A stretch of 64,000 nucleotides of DNA from Bacteroidetes bacterium HGW-Bacteroidetes-7 (GTDB taxonomy: Bacteria; Bacteroidota; Bacteroidia; Bacteroidales; UBA932), in the NCBI GenBank assembly GCA_002842465.1, contig PHDA01000013.1, positions 3,375-67,374 of the forward strand, written 5' to 3'. Numbering within the stretch: position 1 is the first letter of the stretch; every line of letters starts with the position of its first letter. The notes beneath the pieces are model-generated. The model made no database searches and was not told the DNA's origin. It saw only the letters and a program-made list of their open reading frames with translations. The translations under genes and the position numbers were made by a program. Below are positions 2,949 through 45,168 of the stretch, one piece after another.

Positions 2949-4286
2949 ATGAAAGTTGCAGACATTATGGCTTCTCTCGAGAAGAAGCATGGTAACGAGA
3001 AAGAATTTTTACAAGCAGTTCATGAAGTGTTGGAGTCAATTGAAGAAATTTACAACCAGCATCCTGAATTTCAAAAAGCGAAAATTATTGAAAGGCTAAT
3101 TGAGCCGGACCGTATTTTCACATTCAGGGTAACATGGCAGGATGACAAGGGAGAGGTTCACTCAAACCTTGGTTACAGGGTTCAATTCAGTAACGCCATT
3201 GGCCCATACAAAGGCGGCTTCCGTTTCCATCCTTCAGTTAATCTTTCGATTTTAAAATTCCTCGGTTTTGAGCAGATGTTTAAAAATGCTCTAACCACAC
3301 TACCTATGGGTGGTGGCAAAGGAGGCTCTGACTTTGATCCTAAAGGCAAATCAGATGCTGAAATTATGCGTTTTTGCCAATCATTTATAACAGAACTGTG
3401 GCGTCACCTCGGTCCTGACACAGACGTTCCTGCAGGCGATATTGGAGTTGGTGCACGTGAAATCGGGTTTATGTACGGCTGGTTTAAAAAACTTGCTCGC
3501 GAAAACACCGGCGTTCTTACAGGAAAAGGTTCAACCTGGGGAGGTTCACTTATTCGTCCTGAAGCAACAGGTTATGGTGGAGTTTACTTTGTAACACATA
3601 TGCTTGCTACCAAAGGAATGGATATCAAAGGTAAAACAGTTTCAGTTTCAGGTTTCGGCAATGTTGCATGGGGAGCTGCTCAAAAAGCCACCGAACTTGG
3701 AGCAAAGGTTGTTGCGCTTTCTGGTCCTGACGGAATGATACATGATGAAGCAGGTATGACTGCAGAGAAAATTGATTACATGCTTGAGCTACGCGCATCA
3801 AATAATGACGTGGTTGCACCTTATGCTGATAAATTCCCCGGATCGAAATTCTATCCTGGTAAAAAGGCTTGGGCAGTTAAGGTTGACATTGCACTACCGT
3901 GCGCTTTCCAGAACGAACTTAACGGTGAAGACGCAAAAGAACTAATCAAAAACGGAGTTATTTGCGTAGGAGAGCTTTCAAACATGGGCTGTACCCCTGA
4001 GGCGATTGCAGAGCTTCAGAAAGCTAAAGTTCTTTATGCTCCTGGTAAAGCAGCAAATGCAGGTGGTGTGGCTGTTTCTGGTCTTGAGATGACACAGAAT
4101 GCAATGCACATAAGTTGGACATCAGAAGAGGTTGATAACAAACTTAAGCAGATAATGGAGAACATCCACCAGCAATGTGTTAAATACGGAACACAAAAAG
4201 ATGGCTTTATCAATTATGTAAACGGTGCAAATATCGCCGGATTCATGAAGGTTGCAAGAGCCACACTTGAGCAAGGCCTTTGCTAG
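2949..4286 (+). CDS. gdhA: NAD(P)-dependent glutamate dehydrogenase
   Basis: 445 aa. Contains the Glu/Leu/Phe/Val dehydrogenase active-site block LPMGGGKGGSDFDPKGKS and the dinucleotide fold VSVSGFGNVAWGAA. Confidence 0.93.
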   Translation: MKVADIMASLEKKHGNEKEFLQAVHEVLESIEEIYNQHPEFQKAKIIERLIEPDRIFTFRVTWQDDKGEVHSNLGYRVQFSNAIGPYKGGFRFHPSVNLSILKFLGFEQMFKNALTTLPMGGGKGGSDFDPKGKSDAEIMRFCQSFITELWRHLGPDTDVPAGDIGVGAREIGFMYGWFKKLARENTGVLTGKGSTWGGSLIRPEATGYGGVYFVTHMLATKGMDIKGKTVSVSGFGNVAWGAAQKATELGAKVVALSGPDGMIHDEAGMTAEKIDYMLELRASNNDVVAPYADKFPGSKFYPGKKAWAVKVDIALPCAFQNELNGEDAKELIKNGVICVGELSNMGCTPEAIAELQKAKVLYAPGKAANAGGVAVSGLEMTQNAMHISWTSEEVDNKLKQIMENIHQQCVKYGTQKDGFINYVNGANIAGFMKVARATLEQGLC

Positions 4287-4347
4287 AAATTAATACTGAT
4301 TTCAGAAATAGAAAAGTTTTTCCAAAAATATTCTGAAACTTATTCAG

Positions 4348-4381
4348 GTAGCCACATTTGTTAATGTGGCTACTTTTTTTT
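4348..4381 (+). terminator. Rho-independent terminator after gdhA
   Basis: Perfect 10-bp stem GTAGCCACAT / ATGTGGCTAC with a 6-nt loop, followed by T8. Confidence 0.75.
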
Positions 4382-4518: not shown

Positions 4519-4526
4519 TAAATTTG
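4519..4526 (+). promoter_or_regulatory. Candidate Bacteroides-type -7 box (TAAATTTG) upstream of susC-like gene
   Basis: Matches TAnnTTTG. It lies 111 nt upstream of the ATG in a very AT-rich 350-bp intergenic region. There is no well-spaced -33 TTTG, so support is weak. Confidence 0.25.
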
Positions 4527-4636: not shown

Positions 4637-7600
4637 ATGAAAAAATTTAAACTAATCTTAACAGGTCTGTTACTTGTTTTGACTGTTGGTATTATCAACG
4701 CTCAAAATATTCAGGTAACAGGAACTGTTACTGATGCCAACACAGGGGAGCCTGTTATGTTTGCATCAGTTATGCTGAAAGGTACAGTTGTAGGGGCAGC
4801 AACAGATGAGGGTGGAAAATTCACCATAAGCTCTCCGGCAAACGGAATCCTGGTTTTCAGTTTTATTGGCTACACAACTGTAGAAGTGCCCGTAAATGGA
4901 CGCACAACAGTTAATGTATCAATGAGGCCAGATGCCGTTTATCTGGAGGATGTGCTCGTAGTTGCCTACGGTACAACAAGAAAAGAATCATTTACTGGTT
5001 CTGCCGAGGTTCTCAAATCTGAGAAAATCGAAAAGAGAACTGTTTCCAATGTAACTAAAGCTGTTGAAGGTTTAGCAACCGGAGTACTTGTTACATCAGG
5101 AACAGGTCAGCCGGGTGAAGGTTCAAGTATTATTATCAGAGGTTATGGTTCGATCAATGCATCAAACACTCCTCTATATGTAGTTGACGGAATTCCTTAC
5201 AATGGTAGTATTGCAGCTATTAACCCTGCAGATATTGAATCAATGACCATCCTAAAGGATGCATCAGCAGGAGCACTTTATGGTGCCCGTGGTGCAAATG
5301 GTGTAATCATGATTAATACCAAAAGGGGTGCAAAAGATGGCGAAAGAGTAAAAGTTAACTTCAGAAGCGTATGGGGAGTCTCTTCACAGGCTATCCCTTC
5401 TTATGACCTTCTTGATGCAAAGGGCTGGATAGAATACCAGTATCAGGCATTTAAAAATGAAGAGACCATTATGAAAGGTGTTAACCCTGCTGTTGCAGGT
5501 CAGACTGCTATTCAGATGATGCTAACAGGACCAAGTAAAGTGTTTGGTCTTAACCAGCAATATAACCCATATAACTATCCTCTTGCTGACCTTATCGATA
5601 CTCAGACCGGTAAAATCAGAAGCGATGCAACTCTTCGCTATAATGACAACTGGATGAAAGAGGTAACAGCCAGCAACCCAATCAGGCAAGACCACGTGCT
5701 TACAGTTACCGGAGGTAACGATAAAGCCAAGTACATGGGTTCTGTTGGTTTCCTTGATGAAAAAGGTATTCTTATGACCACCGGTTTCAAGCGTTACTCC
5801 GGAAGGGCAAACGTAGAGGCCAAACCTGTTGAATGGCTTAAATTTGGCTTAGGTACCAACTTCGCCCAAACAACAAGTAACTTCCTTAGTGCTACAGGTT
5901 CTGCAACTTCAAACGTATGGTACTCTTGTATGTTAATGGCTCCTATCTATCCGATTTATGAGCTTGACGCAAACAATCAGCCTATTCTTGATGCCAACGG
6001 CAAGAAGAAATTTGACTACGGTCAAAACCGTGCCTCAGGAGCACAACAAAACTACAATAGTATTGCAACTCTTTATGATGACAAGTTTAAAGCTGTCAAT
6101 TCAAGTGTAAGCGGTAGAACATTCTTTGAACTTCTGGATTTCAAAACAGGTCCGATTGCAGGTCTTAAGTTATCTGTAAACCTCGGTTTTGACTTTATAA
6201 ACCAGGAGCAGCACAACTATGAAAATCCTTACTTTGGTAATGCTGCAGGTTCACAGGGTCGTGCTTACAAATACAGCCGCAACACTTTGTCTTCAACTTT
6301 CAACCAACTAATTACCTATAAGAGGACAATTGCTGACAAGCATAATCTTGACTTCCTTGTTGGTCACGAAAACTATCAGTATAAATTCAACTACCTTATG
6401 GGAGCAAAATCAGGTTTCCCTTTTGGTGGTCTATACGAATTGAATGCAGCAGCTACAGTTATCACAGCAGGTTCATACGAGGATAATTACACGATTGAGT
6501 CGTACCTTTCAAGGTTGAACTACAATTTTGATGACAAGTACTACCTTTCAGGTTCATTCCGTCGTGACGGATCTTCACGTTTCCACACTTCTAACCGTTG
6601 GGGTGACTTCTGGTCAGTGGGTGGTAACTGGAGAATAAGCCAGGAGTCATTCATGCAGAGCCTGTCATGGGTTAGAAACATGAACATAAGAGCCAGCTTT
6701 GGTGTTCAGGGTAATGATGCTGTTGGAGGATATTATCCATACCAGGCACTTTACGACCTTGGATTCCCGAATGCAGGTATGAACGGTGCTGTTGTTGCTT
6801 CTATTGCAAACAACGATCTTAAATGGGAGAAAAACGAAAACCTAAACATTGGTTTTGACGCCAGAATTTTTGACAGAGTTTCCATCTCTGCTGAATGGTA
6901 CAAAAGAGTGACAAAGGATATGCTTATGGCCTATCCTCTTGCTATGTCAACCGGTTTCCTCTCTTATCAAAAAAATATTGGAAGCATGCAAAACACCGGA
7001 GTCGAAGTTACTATAGGTGTTGATATGGTTACAAGTAAAGATCTCAGATGGTCACTAACACTAATGGGTTCTACTGTTCAGAATAAGATTCTCAACCTGG
7101 CTGACAAACCTGAAATTACAGCAGGTAACTATATTACCAAAGAGGGTGAGGTTCTTAACTCGTTCTATCTTCCAAAATCTGCTGGTGTTGATCCTGCTAC
7201 AGGATACCAGCTTTACTGGGTATGGGATACTGCTGCAGATGGTACACGCAGTGAGGAGTACATTACTGCCGACAGAGCAAAAGCAGCTGCTTCAAGAGTT
7301 ATCGCAGGTAATCGTATGCCTGACCTGTTTGGTTCAATCAACAATGATTTCAAACTGTTTCAAAGTATAGATTTAAGCATTCTTACTACCTACTCAATCG
7401 GAGGTAAGATTCTTGACGGTCTTTATGCTAACTTGCTTGACCCACTTTATCAAGGTAACTCACTGTCTGCACACTTATCAAGAGCTTGGAGCAAGCCGGG
7501 AGATATCACTGATACTCCTATTGCTCAACTTGGTGCAAACACAACCACTTCTACCCGTAACCTGATTAATGCTTCATACTTTACAATTAAGAATGTAACT

Positions 7601-7795
7601 TTAGGTTATTCTTTACCAAAAACCTGGATGAAGAAAATCGGTATTGAAAATGTAAGAATATCTGCAATTGCAGATAATATTGCAATGTTCACACACCTAA
7701 AGGGTATGAATCCACAGTTTAACTTCTCAGGAGGTACTGACTATGTTTACACACCTACTCGCTCTATTTCACTAGGTTTGGATATAACTTTTTAA
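4637..7795 (+). CDS. SusC/RagA-family TonB-dependent outer-membrane transporter (no STN/anti-sigma signalling domain)
   Basis: 1052 aa. Signal peptide, then a carboxypeptidase-regulatory-like domain (IQVTGTVTDANTGEPVMFASVMLKGT), a plug region (LKDASAGALYGARGANGVIMINTKRG) and a C-terminal beta-barrel ending in F. Followed by SusD. Confidence 0.93.
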   Translation: MKKFKLILTGLLLVLTVGIINAQNIQVTGTVTDANTGEPVMFASVMLKGTVVGAATDEGGKFTISSPANGILVFSFIGYTTVEVPVNGRTTVNVSMRPDAVYLEDVLVVAYGTTRKESFTGSAEVLKSEKIEKRTVSNVTKAVEGLATGVLVTSGTGQPGEGSSIIIRGYGSINASNTPLYVVDGIPYNGSIAAINPADIESMTILKDASAGALYGARGANGVIMINTKRGAKDGERVKVNFRSVWGVSSQAIPSYDLLDAKGWIEYQYQAFKNEETIMKGVNPAVAGQTAIQMMLTGPSKVFGLNQQYNPYNYPLADLIDTQTGKIRSDATLRYNDNWMKEVTASNPIRQDHVLTVTGGNDKAKYMGSVGFLDEKGILMTTGFKRYSGRANVEAKPVEWLKFGLGTNFAQTTSNFLSATGSATSNVWYSCMLMAPIYPIYELDANNQPILDANGKKKFDYGQNRASGAQQNYNSIATLYDDKFKAVNSSVSGRTFFELLDFKTGPIAGLKLSVNLGFDFINQEQHNYENPYFGNAAGSQGRAYKYSRNTLSSTFNQLITYKRTIADKHNLDFLVGHENYQYKFNYLMGAKSGFPFGGLYELNAAATVITAGSYEDNYTIESYLSRLNYNFDDKYYLSGSFRRDGSSRFHTSNRWGDFWSVGGNWRISQESFMQSLSWVRNMNIRASFGVQGNDAVGGYYPYQALYDLGFPNAGMNGAVVASIANNDLKWEKNENLNIGFDARIFDRVSISAEWYKRVTKDMLMAYPLAMSTGFLSYQKNIGSMQNTGVEVTIGVDMVTSKDLRWSLTLMGSTVQNKILNLADKPEITAGNYITKEGEVLNSFYLPKSAGVDPATGYQLYWVWDTAADGTRSEEYITADRAKAAASRVIAGNRMPDLFGSINNDFKLFQSIDLSILTTYSIGGKILDGLYANLLDPLYQGNSLSAHLSRAWSKPGDITDTPIAQLGANTTTSTRNLINASYFTIKNVTLGYSLPKTWMKKIGIENVRISAIADNIAMFTHLKGMNPQFNFSGGTDYVYTPTRSISLGLDITF

Positions 7796-7819
7796 TTAAA
7801 TAATAAGAATATACTTAAT

Positions 7820-9394
7820 ATGAAAAAAATATTTACACTATTTGCAGTAGCACTTCTCGTATTGAGCTCTTGTGAAAAGGAGTATCTTGATACGACCCCT
7901 ACTGACTCAGTTTCCGGGCAATTGATCTTCAGCAATACCGAAAGTGCAATGGTTGCTATGAACGGTATTTACAGAGCTCTTTATTTGCCGAACAGTACCT
8001 GGTTTGGAACTACAGGTAACGTACAGCAGAATTTTGGTATTGTTTCGCACAACATGGTTGCAGACCTTATGGGTGAAGACTATGTACAAGCGGAGCAAGG
8101 AAACGGATGGTTCTATTTTGACTACAGATATGATGTTAGATCAAGATATGCCAGTGCATCATGGAGATGCTATGGTCTGTGGAACTTCTACTACAAGGTA
8201 ATTACAAACGCAAACTATGTAATTGCATCTAAAGATTTGATTCAGGGTGACCCTAATAAAGTTAAGAGTATAATCGGACAGGCTCTTACCCTGCGTGCCT
8301 ACTCTTATTACTATCTGACTCTCTTCTTCCAGCACACTTATAAGGGTAATGAAAACACTCCCGGAGTTCCTCTTTATACTGAGCCAACTTTAGTAGGTGC
8401 TCCAAGGGGTACACTTAAAGATGTGTACGATCTTATTACGGCTGACCTTACAGAGGCAACAACTTTGTTGAAGGCCGCTAAAGATGCAGGTTTAACCAGA
8501 ACTCATAAATCTCACATTGACTACAACGTTGCAAAAGCTATACAGGCTAAGGTATTCCTTACAATGGAAAACTGGACAGGTGCAGCTGATGCAGCAAAAG
8601 AGGCAAGAACAGGTTATACGCTTCTTTCTGGAAGTTCATTATACACAGGATTTAACGATCTTGTTCTCTCTTCTGTAATGTGGGGAGGTCAGGTTATTGC
8701 TACTGAAGCAGTTTCAGGTGGTTGGGGTACATTCTTCTGCCATGTGGATCCGGGTAGCACTCCTGCAGTGATTACAGCAAACGGTTACGGTGTAACATCA
8801 AGAAAATGTATTAGTTCATGGTTATATAACCAGATACCTACAACTGACCTTAGAAGACCTTGGTGGAATGGAGTCGTTCCTGTCCAGGCAAGTTCGGGCC
8901 CAAATAAGAACTATGCTCAGTTTAAGTACAAATACAAAAACATCAGTGATTACACAGGTGACTATATTTTCTTAAGAGCAGAAGAGATGCTTCTTATCGA
9001 AGCTGAAGCAAGAGTAAGACTTACTCAATATGATGCAGCAAGAACACTTCTTCTTGAGCTGGGAGCAGTTCGTGACCCTCAAATGGCTGCAAGAATTGCC
9101 GGAAGGACAAATTCAGCTGTTTACAACACCAATACAACCGGTGCGCTTACTACACTTATGGATGAGGTTTTATTCCAGCGTCGTATAGAGCTTTGGGGTG
9201 AAGCAGGTCGTCTGTTTGACCTAAAGAGACTTGGTCTTGGCTTTGACAGGGATTTTGCCGGAACAAATCACTCACAGCTTCTTAAAACAATCTCTACAGC
9301 AGCTAAATCTAAAGAGTTTGTACTACCTATACCTCAGCAAGAATTTGACGGTAATGAGAATATGGATATCGAAACCGATCAGAATCCTCTATAA
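7820..9394 (+). CDS. SusD/RagB-family nutrient-binding outer-membrane lipoprotein
   Basis: Lipobox LVLSSC. 524 aa, immediately after SusC. C-terminal SusD-like block FLRAEEMLLIEAEA ... QRRIELWGEAGRLFDLKR. Confidence 0.9.
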   Translation: MKKIFTLFAVALLVLSSCEKEYLDTTPTDSVSGQLIFSNTESAMVAMNGIYRALYLPNSTWFGTTGNVQQNFGIVSHNMVADLMGEDYVQAEQGNGWFYFDYRYDVRSRYASASWRCYGLWNFYYKVITNANYVIASKDLIQGDPNKVKSIIGQALTLRAYSYYYLTLFFQHTYKGNENTPGVPLYTEPTLVGAPRGTLKDVYDLITADLTEATTLLKAAKDAGLTRTHKSHIDYNVAKAIQAKVFLTMENWTGAADAAKEARTGYTLLSGSSLYTGFNDLVLSSVMWGGQVIATEAVSGGWGTFFCHVDPGSTPAVITANGYGVTSRKCISSWLYNQIPTTDLRRPWWNGVVPVQASSGPNKNYAQFKYKYKNISDYTGDYIFLRAEEMLLIEAEARVRLTQYDAARTLLLELGAVRDPQMAARIAGRTNSAVYNTNTTGALTTLMDEVLFQRRIELWGEAGRLFDLKRLGLGFDRDFAGTNHSQLLKTISTAAKSKEFVLPIPQQEFDGNENMDIETDQNPL

Positions 9395-9417
9395 TGATTA
9401 ATTAATAAATTAAGTCT

Positions 9418-10206
9418 ATGAAAAATTTAAAATATATAATATCATTGGTGTTATTGTTCGGTTTATTTTCGTGTAACCAGGACGCCATAATGCCATACAT
9501 CGAAAAAAGCGATATCGGAGCCGTAGATGCCGCTTTCTCATCAACCGTTGCAATTTATGATCTGAAACAGGCTGACAACGGCAAGATTCAGGTACTTATT
9601 TACAGAGGCAACACAAAAGGTGCGGCAACTGTTCCTATCAAAATTACAGGAACAGGTATCACACAGCTTACCCTTGCCAGCAATACTGTAACATTCAATG
9701 ATGGTGAAGGGAAAGCCTATGTAACGTTAAATTATAACTTTGCTTCAATTCCTCTTGCAACCAAGTACATTGTTACTCTAACTATTGATGATGCTACAAT
9801 GATTTCAAAATCAAAAGTGTCAGCCATCAGAGTAGAGGCACAACTGCCGTTGAACTATGCAAGTTTTGGAACCGGCACATTTGAGTCAGAATTTTTTGAT
9901 GGTGAGACATGGAGTCAGCCGGTACAAAAGGCTAACGTTTCAACAACTCTTGACTACTATAAACTTCCAGGTTGTTACTATGCCGGTTATGACATTGTTT
10001 TCAGAGTTAGTAACGGAGTTCTACTAGCTGATCAGCAAAACATTGGATATCTGTACAGCCCATCATATGGTTATGTTTTTTTAAGTCCTCAAACTAACAC
10101 CATAAGTGGCAAGAGACACACATTTAACAGCCGTTTTGTTTTGCCTCAAGCAGTTCCTCCTGTGGCTTTTACAGGTACATTTAACGAGACGTTTATAATG
10201 CCATAA
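9418..10206 (+). CDS. SusD-adjacent lipoprotein of unknown function (262 aa)
   Basis: Signal peptide plus lipobox (LFGLFSC). It starts 23 nt after SusD and is followed by a strong terminator. I recognise no catalytic motif. Confidence 0.7.
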   Translation: MKNLKYIISLVLLFGLFSCNQDAIMPYIEKSDIGAVDAAFSSTVAIYDLKQADNGKIQVLIYRGNTKGAATVPIKITGTGITQLTLASNTVTFNDGEGKAYVTLNYNFASIPLATKYIVTLTIDDATMISKSKVSAIRVEAQLPLNYASFGTGTFESEFFDGETWSQPVQKANVSTTLDYYKLPGCYYAGYDIVFRVSNGVLLADQQNIGYLYSPSYGYVFLSPQTNTISGKRHTFNSRFVLPQAVPPVAFTGTFNETFIMP

Positions 10207-10218
10207 TTTTAGAATAAT

Positions 10219-10250
10219 GGGTGCACTCATTTGGGTGCACTCTTTTTTTT
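10219..10250 (+). terminator. Rho-independent terminator built from duplicated GGGTGCACTC
   Basis: GGGTGCACTC-attt-GGGTGCACTC. The self-complementary GTGCAC cores pair to give a roughly 10-bp stem including G.U pairs, followed by T8. Confidence 0.7.
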
Positions 10251-10375
10251 AATAATTCAATTATAATTAACCGGGATGTTCCAAAATTCAAATTTGACTA
10301 CAGAAATAACACTTATGATTAAGCGTTATAACTATTAGGGAGTATTTATTTTTTTAAAATTAATTCTTTAAACAT

Positions 10376-11164
10376 ATGAAATATTTATTATATTTATTGC
10401 TTATTAGTACTGTGCCATTTACATTTTCATGCAATAGCCATGAAATGGAAGAACCAATTAATAACACTTCAGTTATATTGATAACTAAGTCTGGAGGAAC
10501 AATCGGGAGCGTAGTTGATGGAGGTAGTGGAGGAGGAGGTCAAGGATCTGCTAGTGGAAATTTCACATATCCAACAGGTTGGTGTTTGTTTAATAGTGGT
10601 GATTTTGAGTGCAAAGTAGATTGGGTAAATGGCGTTCCCAGCGTATCTACTTTCACTCTTTTTAATATTTTTCCTTCAATGCAAGAGCTAAAGGTTGATA
10701 GCAAAAATGCATATTTCTCAATTCCGGAAGAAGAAATATCAGTAAATATTACTTACACAATTAAACCAATTAAACGTAAAGACTCTACTTTCACATTTCC
10801 TCCATATCAAGGTGTTTTTGCTTTTAAAATTAACATACCAAATGCTAGAGTTATTACTCCAGGTAGTTTAAACTATCCACCAATCCCAACAATTCACAGG
10901 TCTTATAATGTTGTGTCTCTTGATAGATATTACAACATCTCGTTTATTACTGACACTACTGATAATTCTATAATTGCATCAAATGTTAATTTAATGTCAC
11001 ATTCATTTGAAGATGAACCTTCTATTTCATATACGTACAACATTTCAGCCGATCAAGTAACTTTTGAAATAGCAGGAATTGTTATTGTACCATTTTTGTT
11101 GCCAAATGGATCGATTCGTTTAACAGACCTCATATTTGATGATTCGTTTACTGTTCAATTATAA
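10376..11164 (+). CDS. Orphan lipoprotein (262 aa), visibly more AT-rich than neighbours
   Basis: Signal peptide plus lipobox (FTFSC) and a Gly-rich linker GGSGGGGQGSASG. I recognise no family. It sits alone between two terminators. Confidence 0.6.
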   Translation: MKYLLYLLLISTVPFTFSCNSHEMEEPINNTSVILITKSGGTIGSVVDGGSGGGGQGSASGNFTYPTGWCLFNSGDFECKVDWVNGVPSVSTFTLFNIFPSMQELKVDSKNAYFSIPEEEISVNITYTIKPIKRKDSTFTFPPYQGVFAFKINIPNARVITPGSLNYPPIPTIHRSYNVVSLDRYYNISFITDTTDNSIIASNVNLMSHSFEDEPSISYTYNISADQVTFEIAGIVIVPFLLPNGSIRLTDLIFDDSFTVQL

Positions 11165-11288
11165 TTCTGTTGATTTCATTCTTTATATGAACTCTAGTCA
11201 AATTTGGAAAACCTATAAAATTCTTAATATTCAAAATTAGTTTTAATTGGCGTTTGTTATACCAAACTTAAACAACAATTGAATCTTG

Positions 11289-11323
11289 GAGTGCACTCTT
11301 TATCTGAAGTGCACTCTTTTTTT
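11289..11323 (+). terminator. Rho-independent terminator, second GTGCACTC-type hairpin
   Basis: GAGTGCACT / AGTGCACTC give a 9-bp stem with a 10-nt loop, followed by T7. Confidence 0.7.
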
Positions 11324-11347
11324 ATAGTAACCATCAATAAAAATTTG

Positions 11348-11355
11348 TAATTTTG
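11348..11355 (+). promoter_or_regulatory. Candidate -7 box TAATTTTG for the TlpA-like gene
   Basis: TAnnTTTG match 23 nt upstream of the ATG at 11378, directly after a terminator. Confidence 0.4.
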
Positions 11356-11377
11356 ATAGTTAGCTTAGATAAAATTT

Positions 11378-12544
11378 ATGAAAAAGATGAATGAAAATAA
11401 TAGATTATATCAAATTACCGGGTACATGCTAATCGCTTTGGTTTTTATAACAACCAGCCTACTCTTAATAAGTTGTTCTGAAAGAGAAAAAGGGTATGTT
11501 ATAAATGGTGCAATTTCCGGAGCAGAAGATTTATCCGGTATGATGTATTTAAGGCAGCAGGAATTTGGAGGTACACCTATTGATTCAGCTTTGCTGGTAA
11601 ATGGGAAGTTCACATTTAAAGGTAAGGTAGAAGACCCTGACCAATATATTATTTATAACCCAAATCTACCAAACAGAATTTCAATTTTTATTGAAAACAC
11701 CAAATATAAAATTACAGCACCCTCTTATAACCTTAATGATGCAGTTATTGAAGGAGGGAAGTCTCAGACCCTAATAAGCCTTGCAGAAAAAAAGAGCAAA
11801 GAGGTGATTGAAAAATTGAATCTGAATTCAATTATGGCAGATTTCTCAAATTCTCAGGCTCCAAAGGAGGTGAAAGATAGTATCTTGGCCATATTTAACC
11901 TTGCAAATGCTACAATGAAGAGCTACTATGACTCATTATTAAAAGAGAATAGGGACACTTGGTTTTACCTCCATTATACAAAATTATCTGCTCAGGGAGA
12001 AAACCTGGATACCCTTAAGAAAAGGTATGCCCAACTAAAGTCCAATGAAAGATTTATTAATAGTAATCATCTTAAAGAGATAGAAGATGTGCTAAATAAA
12101 CGAGAGTCACTCCAGCCCGGAAAAATTGCTAATAATTTTACACTCAAAGATATGAGCGGTACAAATGTCTCGTTTTATGATGTAACCGCCGAATCAGATT
12201 TTACAATTCTTATTTTCTGGACTGAATGGAGTCTTGAGAGTATAAGTTTCGCAAGGGAAATTAAAGAGATTGCAGATTTAACAAAAAGTAAACAAATAAA
12301 AATTGTAGGTGTTATACTTTCAGGAGCAGAGCAAAGCGAGAGTATGAACGATATGAGAATAGAGACTATAAAGAAAGAGGGATTGAATTTTTTAAATCTA
12401 AATGATATAAGAGAGAATCCGGTAGCATCTCTTTACAATATCAGCCTTATTCCAAGAGCTTTTTTGATTGACAAAAAAAATGTCATAATTTTAAACAATT
12501 TAACAGTTAACGATTTAAAATTGTTTGTTGAGAACAAGCAATAA
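11378..12544 (+). CDS. DUF4369-like N-domain + TlpA/ResA-like thioredoxin-fold lipoprotein with CxxC replaced by SxxS
   Basis: Lipobox LLLISC. The N-domain YVINGAISG...GKFTFKGKVEDP is DUF4369-like. The C-terminal thioredoxin fold reads NFTLKDMSGTNVSFYD...ILIFWTEWSLESISFAREI...SLIPRAFLID. The position of the usual FWASWCGPC is FWTEWSLES. Confidence 0.8.
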   Translation: MKKMNENNRLYQITGYMLIALVFITTSLLLISCSEREKGYVINGAISGAEDLSGMMYLRQQEFGGTPIDSALLVNGKFTFKGKVEDPDQYIIYNPNLPNRISIFIENTKYKITAPSYNLNDAVIEGGKSQTLISLAEKKSKEVIEKLNLNSIMADFSNSQAPKEVKDSILAIFNLANATMKSYYDSLLKENRDTWFYLHYTKLSAQGENLDTLKKRYAQLKSNERFINSNHLKEIEDVLNKRESLQPGKIANNFTLKDMSGTNVSFYDVTAESDFTILIFWTEWSLESISFAREIKEIADLTKSKQIKIVGVILSGAEQSESMNDMRIETIKKEGLNFLNLNDIRENPVASLYNISLIPRAFLIDKKNVIILNNLTVNDLKLFVENKQ

Positions 12545-12567
12545 AGATTTTTGCTCTTTTATTTTGT

Positions 12568-12575
12568 TAATTTTG
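12568..12575 (+). promoter_or_regulatory. Candidate -7 box TAATTTTG upstream of first M64-like gene
   Basis: TAnnTTTG match 95 nt upstream of the ATG at 12670. It shares the same TAATTTTGAT core as the box at 11348. Confidence 0.3.
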
Positions 12576-12593
12576 ATGATTGCTTTTATGGGT

Positions 12594-12635
12594 ATTTTAC
12601 CATGTTGATTTTTTATTTTACCATGTTGATTTTTT
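12594..12635 (+). repeat. Perfect 21-bp tandem direct repeat x2 (ATTTTACCATGTTGATTTTTT)
   Basis: Read directly: 12594-12614 is identical to 12615-12635. It ends 34 nt before the ATG at 12670. Confidence 0.95.
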
Positions 12636-12669
12636 TACAATTTTGCTATTATCAGATTTTTTAAATTTT

Positions 12670-14553
12670 ATGAAAAGATTTATTTACCACATATTTATAA
12701 TAATTTTAGCAGTATTTGTTACAATTTCTTGTAAAAAAGATCCCCCTGCTATTCTTGAACTCTCATTAGATGAGGTCGCAATTGCAAATATTGATGGAAC
12801 ATCAAAAATTCAGGTAACTGCAAATGGTAAATGGACTGCAAGTATCTCTTCAACATGGTGTACTATAACTCCATCTAGTGGAGATGGCAATGGTGAGATA
12901 ACAATTACAGCTGTCAATAATTTTACCAGTTCAGACAGGATTGTGAATATGGTTGTCACTTCCAGAGAACTTAAAAAAACAGTAAGGATTAATCAATCAT
13001 ATTCCAGACTTGATGTATCTGCCATTGAGCTTCTTTTCCCAAAAGATCCAGGTTCAAAAACTGTATTTGTGGATGCAAATACAAGTTGGACAGTAGAGAT
13101 ACCTTCGTCAGTAAACTGGATAACGGTTTCGCCAATGAGTGGTACAACCAGTGGTAATGTGACTATCACCCTTGCTCAAAATGTTGGTGTTATGCGAAGT
13201 GCCGATATACTGTTTAAGTACGGAGAAGAGCAAAAATCGCTTAAGATCAATCAGGAGCGAAGTATTAACCAAGATCCGGCTGCCCCTTTACTCAAATCTC
13301 CTGTTAACAACCTCTCAGATGCAAACAGACTTCCAACATTCCGATGGGGTACTGCAAAAGATCCTGAAGGAGATTTGGTAACATATAAACTCGAATATAC
13401 CAAGAATCAATCCAGCTGGACTAACACTGTTACATTATCTGATAGTGTTTATAATCTCTCATATTACCTTGACGCAAACCAAACCTATTACTGGAGAATC
13501 TCAGCAGTGGATGCCTATGGTGGGGCAGGGGTATCAGAGGTTTATACATTTACAACCGGCACCAAAACCAGCTATCTTGACGGACAGTATAAAATAGCTC
13601 AAAATTTCAGCAAAGGAGCAAGGCCATCAGAGATTTTGTTTATTGGCGATGGTTATATCTCTGAAGACTACGAAGAGGGCGGTATCTTTGACCGGGATAT
13701 GAATAACGGGATTGAATATTTCTTTGAAATAGAGCCATATAAAAGCTACAGAGAGTATTTTACTGTTTATAAACAAGCAGGATACTCAAGAGACAGAGGT
13801 GTAAAACAGACTGATAAAAACGTACTGAAATTCACAAAATTTGGTGTTGACTTTTTAGGAGGCTCATCACTCAATGCAGATACCGATGAGGTATTCAAAT
13901 ACGCCAAAATGATTCCGGGAGTCGATGATTTCAAATTACGAGACATGCTAATTGTTCTTGTTGTAAATCAAGACAGATATGCCGGAACCTGCTGGATATG
14001 GACCGATGGCAAAGCTATTGCAATTTGCCCGGTAAGTACATCAACAGCGGCCGGACAACATTTCAGAAATCTTATATATCATGAGGCCGGTGGACATGGT
14101 TACGGCAGATTGGCAGACGAGTACACTATTACTGCAAATGCAGGAAAAACTATAAATGACGAATATAAATCAAAGTATAATACATTTAAGAACGCCGGAT
14201 TTTATCCAAATGTCGATCTGACAGGTGATGTTACAGCCGTTAAATGGAAACACTTCATTAGCGCACCCGGATATACCAGGGTTGGCACTGTCGAGGGAGG
14301 ATTTTACTTTCCGTTGGGTGTTTGGAGGCCTGAACAATCCAGTTGTATGCAGTATAATGAGGCTTACTACAACGCACCTTCAAGAGAGAAGATGGTTCAA
14401 CGAATACTTTCAATTGCACAGGAGCCATTTTCACTGGAAGCGTTCATGCTAAAAGATGTGCAGAAAGCACCATCGCAATCTGTCTTATTGCAAACAAAGA
14501 GTGTAAACCCACTCACTTTCGTACCACTTGCACCGCCTGTAATGATGAAATAG
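12670..14553 (+). CDS. Surface lipoprotein: 2x BACON-like + FN3-like + peptidase M64 (IgA-peptidase)-like metalloprotease domain, copy 1
   Basis: The ATG at 12670 gives MKRFIYHIFIIILAVFVTISC, a lipobox. The upstream TTG extension merely translates the 21-bp repeat. BACON-like units: KWTASISSTWCTITPSSGDGNGEITITA and SWTVEIPSSVNWITVSPMSGTTSGNVTITL. M64-like blocks: EILFIGDGYISEDY, VLVVNQDRYAGTCW and HEAGGHGYGRLADEY. Confidence 0.8.
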   Translation: MKRFIYHIFIIILAVFVTISCKKDPPAILELSLDEVAIANIDGTSKIQVTANGKWTASISSTWCTITPSSGDGNGEITITAVNNFTSSDRIVNMVVTSRELKKTVRINQSYSRLDVSAIELLFPKDPGSKTVFVDANTSWTVEIPSSVNWITVSPMSGTTSGNVTITLAQNVGVMRSADILFKYGEEQKSLKINQERSINQDPAAPLLKSPVNNLSDANRLPTFRWGTAKDPEGDLVTYKLEYTKNQSSWTNTVTLSDSVYNLSYYLDANQTYYWRISAVDAYGGAGVSEVYTFTTGTKTSYLDGQYKIAQNFSKGARPSEILFIGDGYISEDYEEGGIFDRDMNNGIEYFFEIEPYKSYREYFTVYKQAGYSRDRGVKQTDKNVLKFTKFGVDFLGGSSLNADTDEVFKYAKMIPGVDDFKLRDMLIVLVVNQDRYAGTCWIWTDGKAIAICPVSTSTAAGQHFRNLIYHEAGGHGYGRLADEYTITANAGKTINDEYKSKYNTFKNAGFYPNVDLTGDVTAVKWKHFISAPGYTRVGTVEGGFYFPLGVWRPEQSSCMQYNEAYYNAPSREKMVQRILSIAQEPFSLEAFMLKDVQKAPSQSVLLQTKSVNPLTFVPLAPPVMMK

Positions 14554-14577
14554 GCAGGTACGTAACATAAAAAAACG

Positions 14578-14585
14578 TATCTTTG
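14578..14585 (+). promoter_or_regulatory. Candidate -7 box TATCTTTG for second M64-like gene
   Basis: TAnnTTTG match 23 nt upstream of the ATG at 14608. Confidence 0.4.
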
Positions 14586-14607
14586 GTATGCTTAAAACTA
14601 ACCATTT

Positions 14608-16509
14608 ATGTTAAAATCAATACTTTTCAATAAAATCTATTTTTATAAAATATTTTTAATAATAACAGTTTTAATAACTTTTGGATGTCAAAAAGAACCG
14701 GAGCCCGAGTTAATTCTCTCACAGTCAAATTTAGCTGTTCTTAATACTTCAGGCACTAATAATGTTTCTTTCACTTGTAATGGAAAGTGGACAGCTGTCT
14801 CTTCTGAAACATGGATTACTGTCGCACCGGCGTTTGGTACAGGTAATGGAGAACTTACCTTAACTTTTTCTGGGAATACATCATCAAGTGAAAGAAGCGG
14901 GAATATAATTATAACATCTGGTATTCTCACAAAAACACTAAAAGTTACTCAGAGCCGTACTATTCTTGAAACAGATAATTCAACGCTCTCTTTTCCTAAG
15001 GAGAGCTCTTCTCTAAAATTAAATATTGTATCAAACACAAGCTGGCAAATTGTTGTACCACAGGGTACTGACTGGATGTCAGTTAGTCCTCTAAGTGGTT
15101 CGCAAAATATGGAGGTTAATATCACCGTTAATGCAAATGTCGGAGCACTTAGAGGTGTAGATATTGCAATTAAATATGGAGAGACAGAAAAAAATGTATC
15201 CATAAGCCAGCAGAGAGGCATTAATAACGCGCCTGAAGCACCAAAGCTAAAGTCTCCGGTTAATAACACTCAGGATGTAACAAGATTGCCTGCGTTCAGA
15301 TGGTCAACATCAAAAGATGCAGATGGTGACGCAATTACTTACACATTAGATATTTCAAAAGGTAGTGGTAATTGGACAAACTTACCACCGTTACAAGATA
15401 CTCTGCAATACCTCTCCTCTTTTCTTGATGCAAATAGTGTTTATAATTGGAGAGTCAAAGCTACCGACACTATGGGCGAATCAACATATTCGCAACCATC
15501 TACATTCACTACAGGAAATAAGATAAGCTATTTTGACGGAGAGTATAAGGTTGCTATGGAGAATACTTCAGGGGCACTGCCATCAGAGATTCTTTTTGTT
15601 GGAGATGGCTATACAGCAGAGGATTATGTTGTTGGAGGAAAGTTTGATCAAGAGGTTGAAGAGGGTATTAATTACTTGTTTAATACAGAGCCATACAAAT
15701 CATACAAACAGTATTTCAAGGTTTATAAGCAAGCAGGTTATTCGAGAGATCAGGGAGTAACACAAACAGATAAAAACATTGTAAAAAACACGAAGTTCAG
15801 TGTAACATTTGGGGGTGGCTCATCAATGAACTCCAACAGCGATGCTGTTTTTGCAAGTGCAAAGCTTATTCCGGGAGTTGATGATATAAAATTGCGCGAT
15901 TTACTGATTGTTTTACTGGTAAATGAAAACAGGTATGCCGGCACTTGCTGGACATGGTCAGATGGAAAGACCATTGCCATAACTCCAATTAGCAGAAATT
16001 CAAACCCAAGTTACCATTACAAAGGGGTGTTGCTGCATGAAGCAGGAGGACACGGATTCGGCAGATTAGCAGATGAGTATATAAGTTCGGCAAATGCCGG
16101 GAAGACCATAACTGCTGAAGATATTCAAAGCCTTAAAGCTCGGTTTAGCAAAAATCATTCAGCTAACGTTGATCTAACCTCTGATACTACTCTGGTAAGA
16201 TGGAAGCACTTTCTTAGAAGAGCCGGATACGATAGGGTAGGTACGTACGAAGGTGGTTACTACTATACTTATGGAGTATGGAGGCCTGAGCTTACAAGCT
16301 GTATGATCAATAACATTGCTTACTTTAACGCAGCTTCAAGAGAGGCAATTGTTAAAAGAGTGTTGGCCAAGGCAGGTGAACAGTATTTGCTGGATAACTT
16401 CCTGGCGAAAGATGTCATTAAAGAGCCATCGCAGGCAGCAGTTCTTCAAACCAAGAGTTTCAACCCACTTACCTTCGTCCCATTGGCACCACCGGTGTAC
16501 GTGAAATAG
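14608..16509 (+). CDS. Surface lipoprotein: 2x BACON-like + FN3-like + peptidase M64-like domain, copy 2 (tandem paralog)
   Basis: Lipobox ITFGC. Same architecture as copy 1 and collinear with it, roughly 60 percent identical by eye in the catalytic half. Shared blocks: EILFVGDGYTAEDY, LLVNENRYAGTCW, HEAGGHGFGRLADEY, and the shared C-terminus NPLTFVPLAPPV. Confidence 0.8.
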   Translation: MLKSILFNKIYFYKIFLIITVLITFGCQKEPEPELILSQSNLAVLNTSGTNNVSFTCNGKWTAVSSETWITVAPAFGTGNGELTLTFSGNTSSSERSGNIIITSGILTKTLKVTQSRTILETDNSTLSFPKESSSLKLNIVSNTSWQIVVPQGTDWMSVSPLSGSQNMEVNITVNANVGALRGVDIAIKYGETEKNVSISQQRGINNAPEAPKLKSPVNNTQDVTRLPAFRWSTSKDADGDAITYTLDISKGSGNWTNLPPLQDTLQYLSSFLDANSVYNWRVKATDTMGESTYSQPSTFTTGNKISYFDGEYKVAMENTSGALPSEILFVGDGYTAEDYVVGGKFDQEVEEGINYLFNTEPYKSYKQYFKVYKQAGYSRDQGVTQTDKNIVKNTKFSVTFGGGSSMNSNSDAVFASAKLIPGVDDIKLRDLLIVLLVNENRYAGTCWTWSDGKTIAITPISRNSNPSYHYKGVLLHEAGGHGFGRLADEYISSANAGKTITAEDIQSLKARFSKNHSANVDLTSDTTLVRWKHFLRRAGYDRVGTYEGGYYYTYGVWRPELTSCMINNIAYFNAASREAIVKRVLAKAGEQYLLDNFLAKDVIKEPSQAAVLQTKSFNPLTFVPLAPPVYVK

Positions 16510-16537
16510 AGAATATCAAAACAACATAAAATTCATT

Positions 16538-16569
16538 AAAAAAGCCTGCTTATAGAAGCAGGCTTTTTT
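16538..16569. terminator. Bidirectional terminator between convergent M64-like gene and rpoC
   Basis: AAAAAGCCTGCTT-ata-gAAGCAGGCTTTTTT. The stem is flanked by an A-run and a T-run, so it can terminate transcription from both directions. Confidence 0.75.
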
Positions 16570-16601
16570 AAATTATATCAGTTAACAAAACCGAATTGAG
16601 A

Positions 16602-44259: not shown

Positions 44260-45168
44260 CTAGTCCTGGATGTACCCGAATTGTCTGAGTTTTCTGTCGT
44301 CTTCGCGCCAATCGGGATTTACTTTTACAAATATCTGTAAAAATACCCTTTTTTCAAAAAAGGTTTCCATATCTTTTCTGGCAAGTGTTCCAACTCTTTT
44401 TAGCGCCTCACCACCCTTGCCAATTAAAATTCCCTTCTGGGAATCTCTTGTAACATAGATAATTGCTTCTATATGATAGATGTCATCAGACTCTTTAAAG
44501 TTTTCAATAACAACTTCGGTACAGTAAGGGACCTCTTTCGAATAATTTAAAAGAATCTTTTCACGAATTATCTCACTGGCAAAAAACCTGAGATTTCTGT
44601 CAGTAAAGATATCCTTTTCGTACCAAGCCGGATTTTCAGGAATAATTTCCAGAATTCTGTTGAAAAGCGCATCAAGGTTAAATTTTTCCTGCGCAGAGAT
44701 TGGAAAAATCTCGGCATTTGGTAAAAGTTCTCTCCATGTGGAGTGAATTTCTTCCAATTCAACCTGATTGCTTAGATCAATTTTATTGATTACAAGAAGA
44801 ACCGGAATTGAGGTGTCTTTTAATCGGTTAACAAAGTCCAGGTTTTTCGTGCTTTTTTCAACCACATCGGTAACATAAAGTATAACATCGGCGTCCGAAA
44901 ATGCAGAACGTACAAAACTCATCATACTCTCCTGCAATTTGTAGTTAGGACGTAAAATACCCGGAGTATCAGAATAGACAATCTGATAATCTTCACCGTT
45001 TACAATTCCCATTATGCGGTGTCTGGTTGTTTGAGCTTTGGCTGTAACAATTGACAGTCTTTCGCCAACCAGCGCATTCATAAGCGTAGATTTGCCAACA
45101 TTTGGGTTTCCCACAATGTTGACAAATCCTGACTTGTGATTTTTTTTAGTTTCCTGAGAACTAATCAT
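44260..45168 (-). CDS. era: GTPase Era
   Basis: G1 GNPNVGKST, G3 DTPG, G4 NKID, and a C-terminal KH domain. The ATG at 45168 is preferred over the GTG at 45174. Confidence 0.93.
   Translation of the reverse strand: MISSQETKKNHKSGFVNIVGNPNVGKSTLMNALVGERLSIVTAKAQTTRHRIMGIVNGEDYQIVYSDTPGILRPNYKLQESMMSFVRSAFSDADVILYVTDVVEKSTKNLDFVNRLKDTSIPVLLVINKIDLSNQVELEEIHSTWRELLPNAEIFPISAQEKFNLDALFNRILEIIPENPAWYEKDIFTDRNLRFFASEIIREKILLNYSKEVPYCTEVVIENFKESDDIYHIEAIIYVTRDSQKGILIGKGGEALKRVGTLARKDMETFFEKRVFLQIFVKVNPDWREDDRKLRQFGYIQD

Follow-up and report, generated by a model that had tools for sequence, protein, structure and literature searches.

Recurrent linkage of HExxGH-type M64-like metallopeptidases to SusC–SusD pairs at a candidate peptide-scavenging locus of Bacteroidales

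To our knowledge, peptide-importing Sus-like systems have barely been characterised apart from RagAB of Porphyromonas gingivalis. For RagAB, a machine of the SusCD type, the import of oligopeptides is proven (bioRxiv 10.1101/755678), and a lipoprotein combining BACON with a metallopeptidase, BT4244, is already known from a polysaccharide utilization locus (PUL; PMC3267712). About half of the susC/D loci have no carbohydrate-active enzyme (CAZyme) and their substrates are mostly unknown; those among them that carry peptidases form an already recognised class (PMC6499787). BF3526, the only characterised Bacteroides peptidase of family M64, does not cut intact immunoglobulin A (IgA) and trims the N-termini of pre-digested proteins and peptides; its homologues were reported outside PULs (PMC12402451). 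Here we describe a locus of seven co-directional open reading frames (ORFs), g1–g7 (4637–16509, + strand), in a 64,000-nt stretch of contig PHDA01000013.1 of Bacteroidetes bacterium HGW-Bacteroidetes-7 (hereafter the window; coordinates are window positions unless a locus handle such as L001 precedes them). It encodes a SusC–SusD pair and five further lipoproteins, two of which are M64-like and carry the zinc motif HExxGH.

With moderate confidence, we read it as a peptide/protein scavenging locus composed of a RagAB-like SusCD importer, M64-like metallopeptidases, and non-catalytic binding lipoproteins. One to three lipid-anchored HExxGH zinc metallopeptidases, with two BACON domains and FN3 as spacers, would cut or trim extracellular polypeptides, and the SusC barrel and SusD lid would import the resulting oligopeptides across the outer membrane in the manner of RagAB. 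The two-domain beta-sandwich lipoprotein g3 would serve as an accessory ligand binder, as would g5, which occurs in one sub-clade, lacks cysteines, and keeps the cis-Pro groove. The adjacent glutamate dehydrogenase and 2-oxoacid:ferredoxin oxidoreductase would feed imported amino acids into fermentation. The locus is a recurrent and well-delimited candidate for a peptide-importing Sus-like system. Its ORFs lie where an original prediction from the sequence had placed them, and ORFs and Pfam bore out the predicted order SusC, SusD, 262-aa lipoprotein, orphan, DUF4369/TlpA-type protein, and two M64-like proteins, with the g6 start corrected.

4637–7795, + strand: g1, SusC/RagA-family TonB-dependent transporter, 1052 aa (TIGR04056, Pfam)
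7820–9394, + strand: g2, SusD/RagB-family lipoprotein, 524 aa (Pfam)
9418–10206, + strand: g3, lipoprotein, 262 aa, two predicted beta-sandwich domains (AlphaFold2 (AF2) model, Foldseek)
10376–11164, + strand: g4, near-orphan lipoprotein with a Gly-rich linker, 262 aa (two homology matches)
11378–12544, + strand: g5, DUF4369 plus thioredoxin-fold (TlpA/ResA-like) lipoprotein, 388 aa (Pfam)
12670–14553, + strand: g6, BACON-BACON-FN3-M64-like lipoprotein, 627 aa (Pfam)
14608–16509, + strand: g7, BACON-BACON-FN3-M64-like lipoprotein, 633 aa (Pfam)

The M64-like peptidases and their zinc motif

Peptidase_M64 (PF09471) was matched by g6 with 49.3 bits and by g7 with 77.7 bits, against a gathering cut-off of 26. 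Behind lipoboxes at Cys21 and Cys27, respectively, both proteins carry two N-terminal BACON stretches (PF13004/PF19190; 54.6–62.2 bits for the whole protein) and an FN3/Ig-like domain (Pfam), and they share 52% identity. A sequence search of the PDB with g7 returned BF3526 (4df9/9qdi; E 3e-9) and BACOVA_00663 (3P1V; 2e-7). In the AF2 model of g7 (pLDDT 90), the zinc motif lies within helix 471–484, and BF3526 and BACOVA_00663 occupied the top 13 Foldseek matches in the PDB (best E 7e-18, BF3526), the alignment spanning FN3 and the catalytic domain in about 400 columns. These profile and model comparisons could have placed g6 and g7 in a glycan-active family; instead, the M64 peptidase fold that had been predicted for them is established.

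The zinc motif is located at 14080–14124 in g6 (HEAGGHGYGRLADEY) and at 16036–16080 in g7 (HEAGGHGFGRLADEY). It reads HEAGGH-G[YF]GRLA-D-EY, which corresponds to the six-residue form HExxGH-x2-G-x3-D-E-Y and departs from the hallmark HEXXHXXXGXXD that M64 is said to retain throughout (PMC12402451); the original prediction had missed the variant. BF3526 reads HEFGH-SFGGLA-D-EY, with the catalytic residues H311, E312, H315, and D322 (PMC12402451). In the HMMER alignment, a one-residue gap fell in BF3526 between Phe and Gly, and the spacing from the second His to Asp-Glu-Tyr was the same.

HExxGH was found in 118 of 120 homologues. An exhaustive search yielded 3118 cluster representatives at E ≤ 1e-3, of which 779 reached E ≤ 1e-30; its 150 best matches included 143 new representatives, and 142 of these have the motif. 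Because these relatives keep the motif, g6 and g7 belong to a large, distinct M64-like clade; it comprises at least several hundred clusters at 50% identity, has a zinc motif unlike the published hallmark, and is linked to SusCD, unlike canonical Bacteroides M64. An alignment of 31 sequences, extending down to 34% identity, showed H477, E478, G481, H482, D489, E490, and Y491 to be invariant. The variant was not found in the supplements of the M64 paper (PMC12402451), and the literature searched holds no description of such a remodelling of the M64 zinc site.

An HEXXGH zinc site is the norm in the unrelated family M49 (dipeptidyl peptidase III, DPP III), where it is catalytically competent and coexists with active five-residue variants (PMC5805324, PMC9820243). 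With this precedent, HExxGH is compatible with catalysis, and the invariance of the motif argues for it; by analogy, we infer that the site in g6 and g7 would be catalytically active.

The number of tandem M64-like copies varied from one to three among the loci compared (L001 6083–11899; L002, L003, L004, L006, and L055). Orthologues of g6 in L001–L004 were 59–92% identical to it, and since g6 and g7 types are both conserved in these loci, the duplication is old and both copies were kept. Their retention suggests, from the sequences, that the two paralogues may have different specificities.

The g6 ORF opens at TTG 12580, and the start is most likely ATG 12670. A perfect 21-bp tandem duplication (TATTTTACCATGTTGATTTTT, twice) occupies 12593–12634 in the g5–g6 spacer, 36–77 nt upstream of this start. 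It lets the ORF extend back to the TTG, was seen in this genome (L078) alone among 78 loci, and could be a slippage product or an operator. In the Joint Genome Institute (JGI) scaffold of the same genome, g6 is split, and the public calls are 80-aa and 425-aa products. A pseudogene was ruled out: the split corresponds to 10 consecutive N within g6 (L078 ~5453–5463, window ~12897) and the window copy is intact, which makes it an assembly artefact.

The importer pair, its recurrence, and the accessory lipoproteins

g1 scored 760 bits with TIGR04056 (cut-off 368), 64 bits with the TIGR04057 signature, and 72.5 bits with Plug, which follows a carboxypeptidase-regulatory-like domain (CarbopepD_reg_2, Pfam) at the N-terminus. 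These are the characters of a SusC/RagA protein, and the SusD start lies 24 bp downstream. An STN domain had been predicted to be missing; g1 gave no Pfam match to it and the flanks hold no regulator, so that g1 lacks the hallmarks of trans-envelope signalling. Its closest solved sequences were a glycan-type SusC homologue (8aa4, 401 bits) and, second, P. gingivalis RagA (6sli, 369 bits, full length). g2 matched SusD-like_3 (58.3 bits) and SusD_RagB (49.8 bits) and has the lipobox LSSC with Cys18 and the tail EKEY, as expected of a SusD/RagB lipoprotein; its best PDB sequence match was 3snx (E 2e-31).

Pfam and NCBIfam detected no glycoside hydrolase (GH), polysaccharide lyase (PL), carbohydrate esterase, hybrid two-component system (HTCS), or extracytoplasmic function (ECF) sigma factor in the seven proteins or the adjoining flanks, in agreement with the predicted lack of GH, PL, HTCS, and ECF/anti-sigma genes. 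The window locus therefore differs from a canonical PUL, which combines SusCD with at least one CAZyme. For g2, g3, g4, and g6, NCBIfam offers no model.

A scan of one genome per GTDB species gave 477 confirmed relatives, from which 76 loci were retained. Apart from two records with generic titles, all are named Bacteroidota, chiefly Bacteroidales, and the nearest species representative is a metagenome-assembled genome (MAG) of Rikenellaceae (L001). Neighbourhoods in 78 loci were compared by tblastn with the window proteins and by all-against-all clustering of 887 ORFs, and the two approaches agreed. The commonest neighbour families of the M64-like gene were SusD (40 loci) and SusC (39), followed by rpoC (21), gdhA (18), g3 (15), g5 (13), a secreted protein of about 225 aa (12), and a Calx-beta lipoprotein (10). 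A locus was counted as informative if its M64-like gene was full-length and preceded by 6 kb of sequence or more; of the 53 such loci, 31 had both SusC and SusD within 8 kb of the M64-like gene, the pair being upstream on the same strand in 27 of the 31. The linkage of the peptidase to SusCD is thus conserved across several Bacteroidales families, in five or more architectures, and the adjacency is not a matter of chance. Since canonical M64 such as BF3526 was reported outside PULs, the linkage to SusCD is specific to the HExxGH clade, and no description of it was found in the literature searched. The following architectures were observed.

Window, L001, L003, L005, L007–L009, and L077: oxidoreductase–gdhA–SusC–SusD–g3–g5–M64 (one to three copies)–rpoC
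L002 and L004: SusC–SusD–M64–M64
L010, L032–L034, and L059: SusC–SusD–g3–M64
L027, L031, L036, L038, L042, and L048: SusC–SusD–Calx lipoprotein–225-aa protein–M64
L011, L020, L021, and L025: the Calx/225-aa architecture with an S8 subtilase bearing a type IX secretion system sorting domain and a PorV-like gene between SusD and the M64-like gene (Pfam)
L013, L017, and L030: architecture with divergent SusCD
L035 (Odoribacter sp. AF15-53): ECF sigma–FecR–SusC (STN)–SusD–lipoprotein–M64 (Pfam-verified)

The S8 subtilase in related loci strengthens the proteolytic theme, and the gene order of L035 shows the M64-like peptidase as cargo of a Sus-like system with classical regulation. Butyricimonas and Proteiniphilum have loci, not scanned against Pfam, that agree with L035 in gene sizes and order. 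Versions with ECF-sigma/anti-sigma genes are thus present in cultured gut genera, in an isolate genome of Odoribacter and, for Butyricimonas, so far in a MAG only, and induction tests should be straightforward.

In L012 (2601–15125) and L013 (5071–15404), two SusCD lineages, about 39% and 55% identical to the window SusC, flank one M64-like gene; the simpler loci may have arisen by differential losses from a two-transporter ancestor. In 12 loci (e.g., L011 5655–6323, L027 2132–2806, and L036 7980–8669), the secreted protein of about 225 aa is encoded between the Calx-beta lipoprotein and the M64-like protein. Its N-terminus carries the motif NPTTTWPYLYNDF; it lacks a lipobox, matches no Pfam family, and is an uncharacterised partner.

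The position after SusD, which is that of g3, is usually occupied by surface binding proteins. g3 belongs to no Pfam or NCBIfam family, gave only chance-level matches in PDB sequence searches, and had only 18 homologues among 5.8 billion proteins. Its AF2 model (pLDDT 85.6) consists of two beta-sandwich domains, and the best Foldseek matches were BACOVA_03430, BACOVA_00267, BACOVA_03559, and BT3507 ("auxiliary nutrient binding protein"), together with Calx-beta domains; such PDB names are structural-genomics labels rather than results of assays. BACOVA_03559 and BT3507 have been listed among the DUF1735-type proteins, which join a spacer to a binding domain (PMC11216935). Like these DUF1735/DUF4361-type PUL lipoproteins (BT3507, 4QNI; BACOVA_03559, 4DQA), its best structural matches, modelled g3 has an Ig-like N-terminal spacer and a C-terminal beta-sandwich, and its gene directly follows SusD; it differs in having no Pfam match to DUF1735 or DUF4361, and the whole-chain TM-scores are low (0.34–0.38). 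The g3 family was linked by hhalign to the Calx-beta lipoproteins found at this position in other loci (probability 93.8%, E 1.7e-7), and the conserved core therefore includes a post-SusD beta-sandwich lipoprotein.

g5 matched DUF4369 (61.9 bits), AhpC-TSA (36.6), and Thioredoxin_8 (33.6). It shares the two-domain architecture, the fold, and the cis-Pro loop (LIPRAF, 12446–12463) with TlpA/ResA-type proteins carrying DUF4369 and differs from them in that both active-site cysteines are replaced: WSLES (12227–12241) aligns with WCKPC of ResA (4nmu), SLES standing in place of CxxC. The redox-dead thioredoxin-fold lipoprotein of the original prediction was thereby recovered. All 10 locus-linked orthologues, down to 29% identity, lack both cysteines and read W[SN]xE[SA] with a conserved Glu, whereas all four unlinked paralogues (L019, L039, and two in L075) keep WC[GP][PS]C. 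The loss is therefore old, fixed, and specific to the locus-linked lineage, and because both cysteines are replaced in all linked orthologues, redox chemistry is excluded for g5. The pattern points to a new, non-redox role. The b' domain of protein disulfide isomerase is redox-inactive and binds peptides, and this analogy suggests that the thioredoxin groove of g5 may bind unfolded peptide. No description of a locus-specific, cysteine-free thioredoxin-fold lipoprotein was found in the literature searched.

g4 is a recent, strain-specific insertion of about 1 kb and not a core component. It shares with g3 the lack of a Pfam or NCBIfam family and chance-level PDB sequence matches. Only two matches were found among the 5.8 billion proteins, an HGW-Bacteroidetes-7 protein identical over 91% of g4 (100% identity) and a 43%-identical protein from the same locus type (L077), where it follows g5 beside an IS3 transposase. 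On each side of the low-GC cassette of about 1 kb (10251–11287) stands one copy of the g3 terminator hairpin (GAGTGCACTC...GTGCACTC, then a T run). L001, whose other proteins are 79–98% identical, has no g4, and its uninterrupted g3–g5 spacer aligns after g3 with its left half and after g4 with its right half. These observations identify g4 as a recent insertion; the predicted orphan status nearly held, and core membership of the locus did not.

The genes upstream of the locus are as follows.

36–1871, + strand: 2-oxoacid:acceptor (ferredoxin) oxidoreductase alpha (Pfam; NCBIfam TIGR03710 gave 624 bits for the oxidoreductase)
1890–2912, + strand: 2-oxoacid:acceptor (ferredoxin) oxidoreductase beta (Pfam)
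2949–4286, + strand: gdhA, glutamate dehydrogenase (Pfam; PRK14030, 858 bits)

These are amino-acid catabolism enzymes, and they are linked to the locus in relatives too; the linkage of gdhA and the oxidoreductase persists through inversion (L034 and L039) and without rpoC (L036, L038, and L059). Downstream of g7, rpoC and rpoB lie in convergent orientation; an HTCS identity for these two genes of more than 1200 aa was ruled out. An Rfam scan of 1–25000 revealed no riboswitch or small RNA. Elsewhere in the window, a 664-aa pseudouridine synthase (45161–47155, − strand) has S4 and PseudoU_synth_2 in its C-terminal 240 aa and an N-terminal extension of about 420 aa. At this place the AT skew is strong (−0.27) and four long ORFs in different frames overlap; the extension is probably a charged tail of low complexity.

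Competing readings of the locus

Several observations weigh against peptide scavenging, and the first of them concern the ligand. The nearest solved relatives of g2 are SusD-like proteins named "putative carbohydrate-binding", and RagB did not match g2 in the PDB sequence search at E ≤ 1e-3. In L041 (11917–21491, a Cryptobacteroides MAG), SusC–SusD–M64-like is followed by a 510-aa lipoprotein, an HTCS, a GH97 enzyme, the only glycosidase seen, and a BACON-LRR protein; the alternatives here are a true PUL next to the trio and a single locus of mixed glycan/peptide type. Such findings would be expected of a glycan or glycopeptide locus whose CAZymes are encoded elsewhere or are unrecognised (g3, g4, or g5), with the M64-like proteins stripping the peptide part of a glycoconjugate. 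Remote or unknown CAZymes have been proposed as one reason why half of the susC/D loci lack them (PMC6499787), g3 resembles PUL lipoproteins annotated as carbohydrate- or nutrient-binding, and BACON-peptidase fusions such as BT4244 act on mucin glycoproteins (PMC3267712). We nevertheless consider a glycan locus unlikely: no CAZyme domain occurs in the seven proteins or, L041 apart, in the inserted genes of relatives that were scanned against Pfam, the enzyme added by other loci is a subtilase and not a glycosidase, and the names of the g3-like PDB entries are labels of the kind described above.

The second group of contrary observations concerns the coupling of the genes. About 40% of the informative loci (22 of 53) have no SusCD, the M64-like gene standing among housekeeping genes, so that the linkage is frequent and not obligatory. 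The synteny with gdhA and rpoBC may simply be inherited. The transcription signals are listed below.

4346–4375, + strand: terminator-like hairpin 3' of gdhA, with a 13-bp stem and a T run behind it, separating gdhA from the SusC unit
4519–4526, + strand: candidate Bacteroidetes −7 box TAAATTTG, a consensus match to TAnnTTTG, in the 350-bp, 21% GC spacer upstream of SusC
10219–10250, + strand: intrinsic-terminator-like hairpin, GGGTGCACTC-loop-GGGTGCACTC followed by T8, directly 3' of g3
11288–11326, + strand: second copy of the g3 terminator hairpin, after g4, at the right edge of the g4 insertion
16536–16571, unstranded: hairpin of 16 base pairs with a T-rich tail between the convergent g7 and rpoC, the downstream boundary of the locus

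The hairpin at 10219–10250 is conserved in L001 and L003, with a variable loop, and because this conserved terminator follows g3, g5–g7 need not be co-transcribed with SusCD. SusC–SusD–g3 is probably the main transcription unit, judged from these signals, and the genes downstream may be reached by read-through or have separate promoters. g5, g6, and g7 are preceded by similar −7 boxes, again consensus matches, at 11348, 12568, and 14578, respectively; the density of TAnnTTTG was four boxes in 0.74 kb of spacer sequence, versus 0.5 per kb window-wide. A sigma-70 scan was uninformative (49 sites versus 39.6 expected), its consensus being wrong for Bacteroidetes.

The conserved terminator and the boxes would suit inherited synteny without coupling, in which SusC–SusD–g3 forms one unit and g5 and the M64-like genes are independent neighbours between gdhA and rpoBC; the many loci from related Bacteroidales that share the gdhA...rpoC frame, and the loci without SusCD, would suit it too. 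However, the linkage holds where the flanks differ (L029, L033–L036, L038, L042, L048, and L059), it involves at least three SusCD lineages of 25–55% identity (L012 and L013 have two of them, one on each side of the peptidase gene), and it recurs in the ECF-sigma/anti-sigma loci, Pfam-verified in Odoribacter L035 and of the same sizes and order in Butyricimonas and Proteiniphilum. With canonical M64 (BF3526) reported outside PULs (PMC12402451), the linkage is also clade-specific, and inherited synteny alone appears quite improbable.

The remaining contrary observations concern the peptidases themselves. The g7 catalytic domain contains only Cys447 and Cys565, the latter being the sole invariant Cys and followed by no other, and the Glu-Cys3 structural zinc site therefore cannot form. 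The M64-like proteins could then be pseudo-enzymes, with a one-residue insertion in the zinc helix and a lost structural zinc site, that now act as surface binding proteins, and the departure of HExxGH from HEXXHXXXGXXD (PMC12402451) and the look of g5, and perhaps of g3, as repurposed binding modules would accord with this. Nevertheless, hundreds of 50%-identity clusters share the His, Glu, His, Asp, and Glu-Tyr residues without variation, a constancy rarely seen in dead enzymes, and HEXXGH of M49 binds zinc and supports catalysis (PMC5805324, PMC9820243); loss of activity is thus very unlikely.

The experimentally defined export signal, which starts from the lipidated Cys, reads C-X-K-(D/E)2-X and is negatively charged overall (PMC5080379). 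The tails that had been predicted to resemble it were all found, namely C-NQD in g3, C-NSHEMEE in g4, C-SEREKG in g5, C-KKDPP in g6, and C-QKEPEPE in g7. g7 (QKEPEPE) and SusD (EKEY) come close to the signal, g6 (KKDPP) and g3 (NQDA) have one acidic residue each, and g5 (SEREKG) is net neutral. Across the M64-like family, K occupies +3 in 72% and D/E occupies +4 in 73%, followed by prolines, with a net charge of about 0; this partial match also belongs to the contrary observations. The claimed resemblance thus stood in part. Surface exposure of the locus lipoproteins is plausible from these tails, and a periplasm-facing trimming role for the M64-like proteins would also fit chemistry of the BF3526 kind.

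Substrate and comparison with described systems

HGW-Bacteroidetes-7 is presumably one of the Horonobe deep-groundwater MAGs, and its relatives come from groundwater, bioreactors, and biofilms, as well as from termite, bird, and ruminant guts. The original prediction had the surface endopeptidases attack host mucin-type glycoproteins or IgA and SusCD import the glycopeptides. A host substrate would agree with the IgA protease on which family M64 was founded, with the mucin binding first predicted for BACON, and with the animal guts from which some relatives come. On the other hand, the window genome appears to be a groundwater MAG and many relatives have similar non-host sources, BF3526 leaves IgA intact, the recognition of IgA by ThomasA depends on features specific to that enzyme and on domains absent here (PMC12402451), and BACON domains are now interpreted as spacers and no longer as binders of mucin-type glycans (PMC11216935). 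The host IgA/mucin idea is therefore unsupported, and we regard it as highly improbable. What survives of the original prediction is a probable protein rather than polysaccharide locus, in line with the M64 fold, the SusCD linkage, and the lack of a CAZyme; its host-glycoprotein part is disfavoured. Under peptide scavenging, detrital or necromass protein would be a more natural substrate, and the neighbouring gdhA and 2-oxoacid:ferredoxin oxidoreductase genes fit amino-acid fermentation.

A wider picture is more tentative, and doubtful as a whole. The HExxGH M64-like clade, a Calx-beta/DUF1735-like lipoprotein, and the cysteine-free thioredoxin-fold lipoprotein might together define a widespread, unnamed "peptide utilisation locus" of Bacteroidales. 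The redox-dead thioredoxin fold would have been recruited as a cell-surface peptide binder, a peptide counterpart of SusE/F, and the remodelled M64 site would have its own specificity. Glutamate-family fermentation would be fed by this system in non-host habitats where protein is limiting, such as deep groundwater. The literature searched yielded no established term "peptide/protein utilization locus" and no paper on M64 in PULs, except the statement that BF3526 homologues lie outside them. If peptide scavenging by the locus is confirmed, the Sus paradigm would be extended from glycans to proteins in environmental Bacteroidales, and M64 would gain a new zinc-site variant.

Among described systems, DPP III of M49 shares with g6 and g7 the hexapeptide His-Glu-x-x-Gly-His, a likeness of motif only; its fold and family are unrelated to M64. 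M49 is cytosolic and has its third zinc ligand in the motif EEXR(K)AE(D). BF3526 and BACOVA_00663 (9QDI, 4DF9, and 3P1V; PMC12402451) are the best sequence and fold matches, each with a beta-sandwich followed by the M64 catalytic domain, and BF3526 has the second His, the Asp ligand, and the Glu-Tyr pair in the same register. It differs in reading HEFGH, one residue shorter than HEAGGH, and in having, like ThomasA, the Glu-Cys3 structural zinc site that is impossible in g7; the HExxGH clade adds two BACON domains and a lipobox, and it is linked to SusCD in 31 of 53 informative loci, whereas BF3526 homologues were reported outside PULs.

BT4244, a BACON-CBM32-M60-like protein of a mucin O-glycan PUL of Bacteroides thetaiotaomicron (PMC3267712), is likewise a lipoprotein zinc metallopeptidase with N-terminal BACON in a Sus-like locus. 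It is an M60-like HEXXH gluzincin and not an M64-like HExxGH protein, and the locus described here has no CBM32, no glycosidases, and a non-host habitat. With RagAB, the window locus shares a SusC/RagA barrel and a SusD/RagB lid without CAZymes, and P. gingivalis lives on peptides generated by proteases; the rag locus differs in having no linked peptidase lipoproteins, g2 has no detectable match to RagB, and the peptide ligand proposed here is putative.

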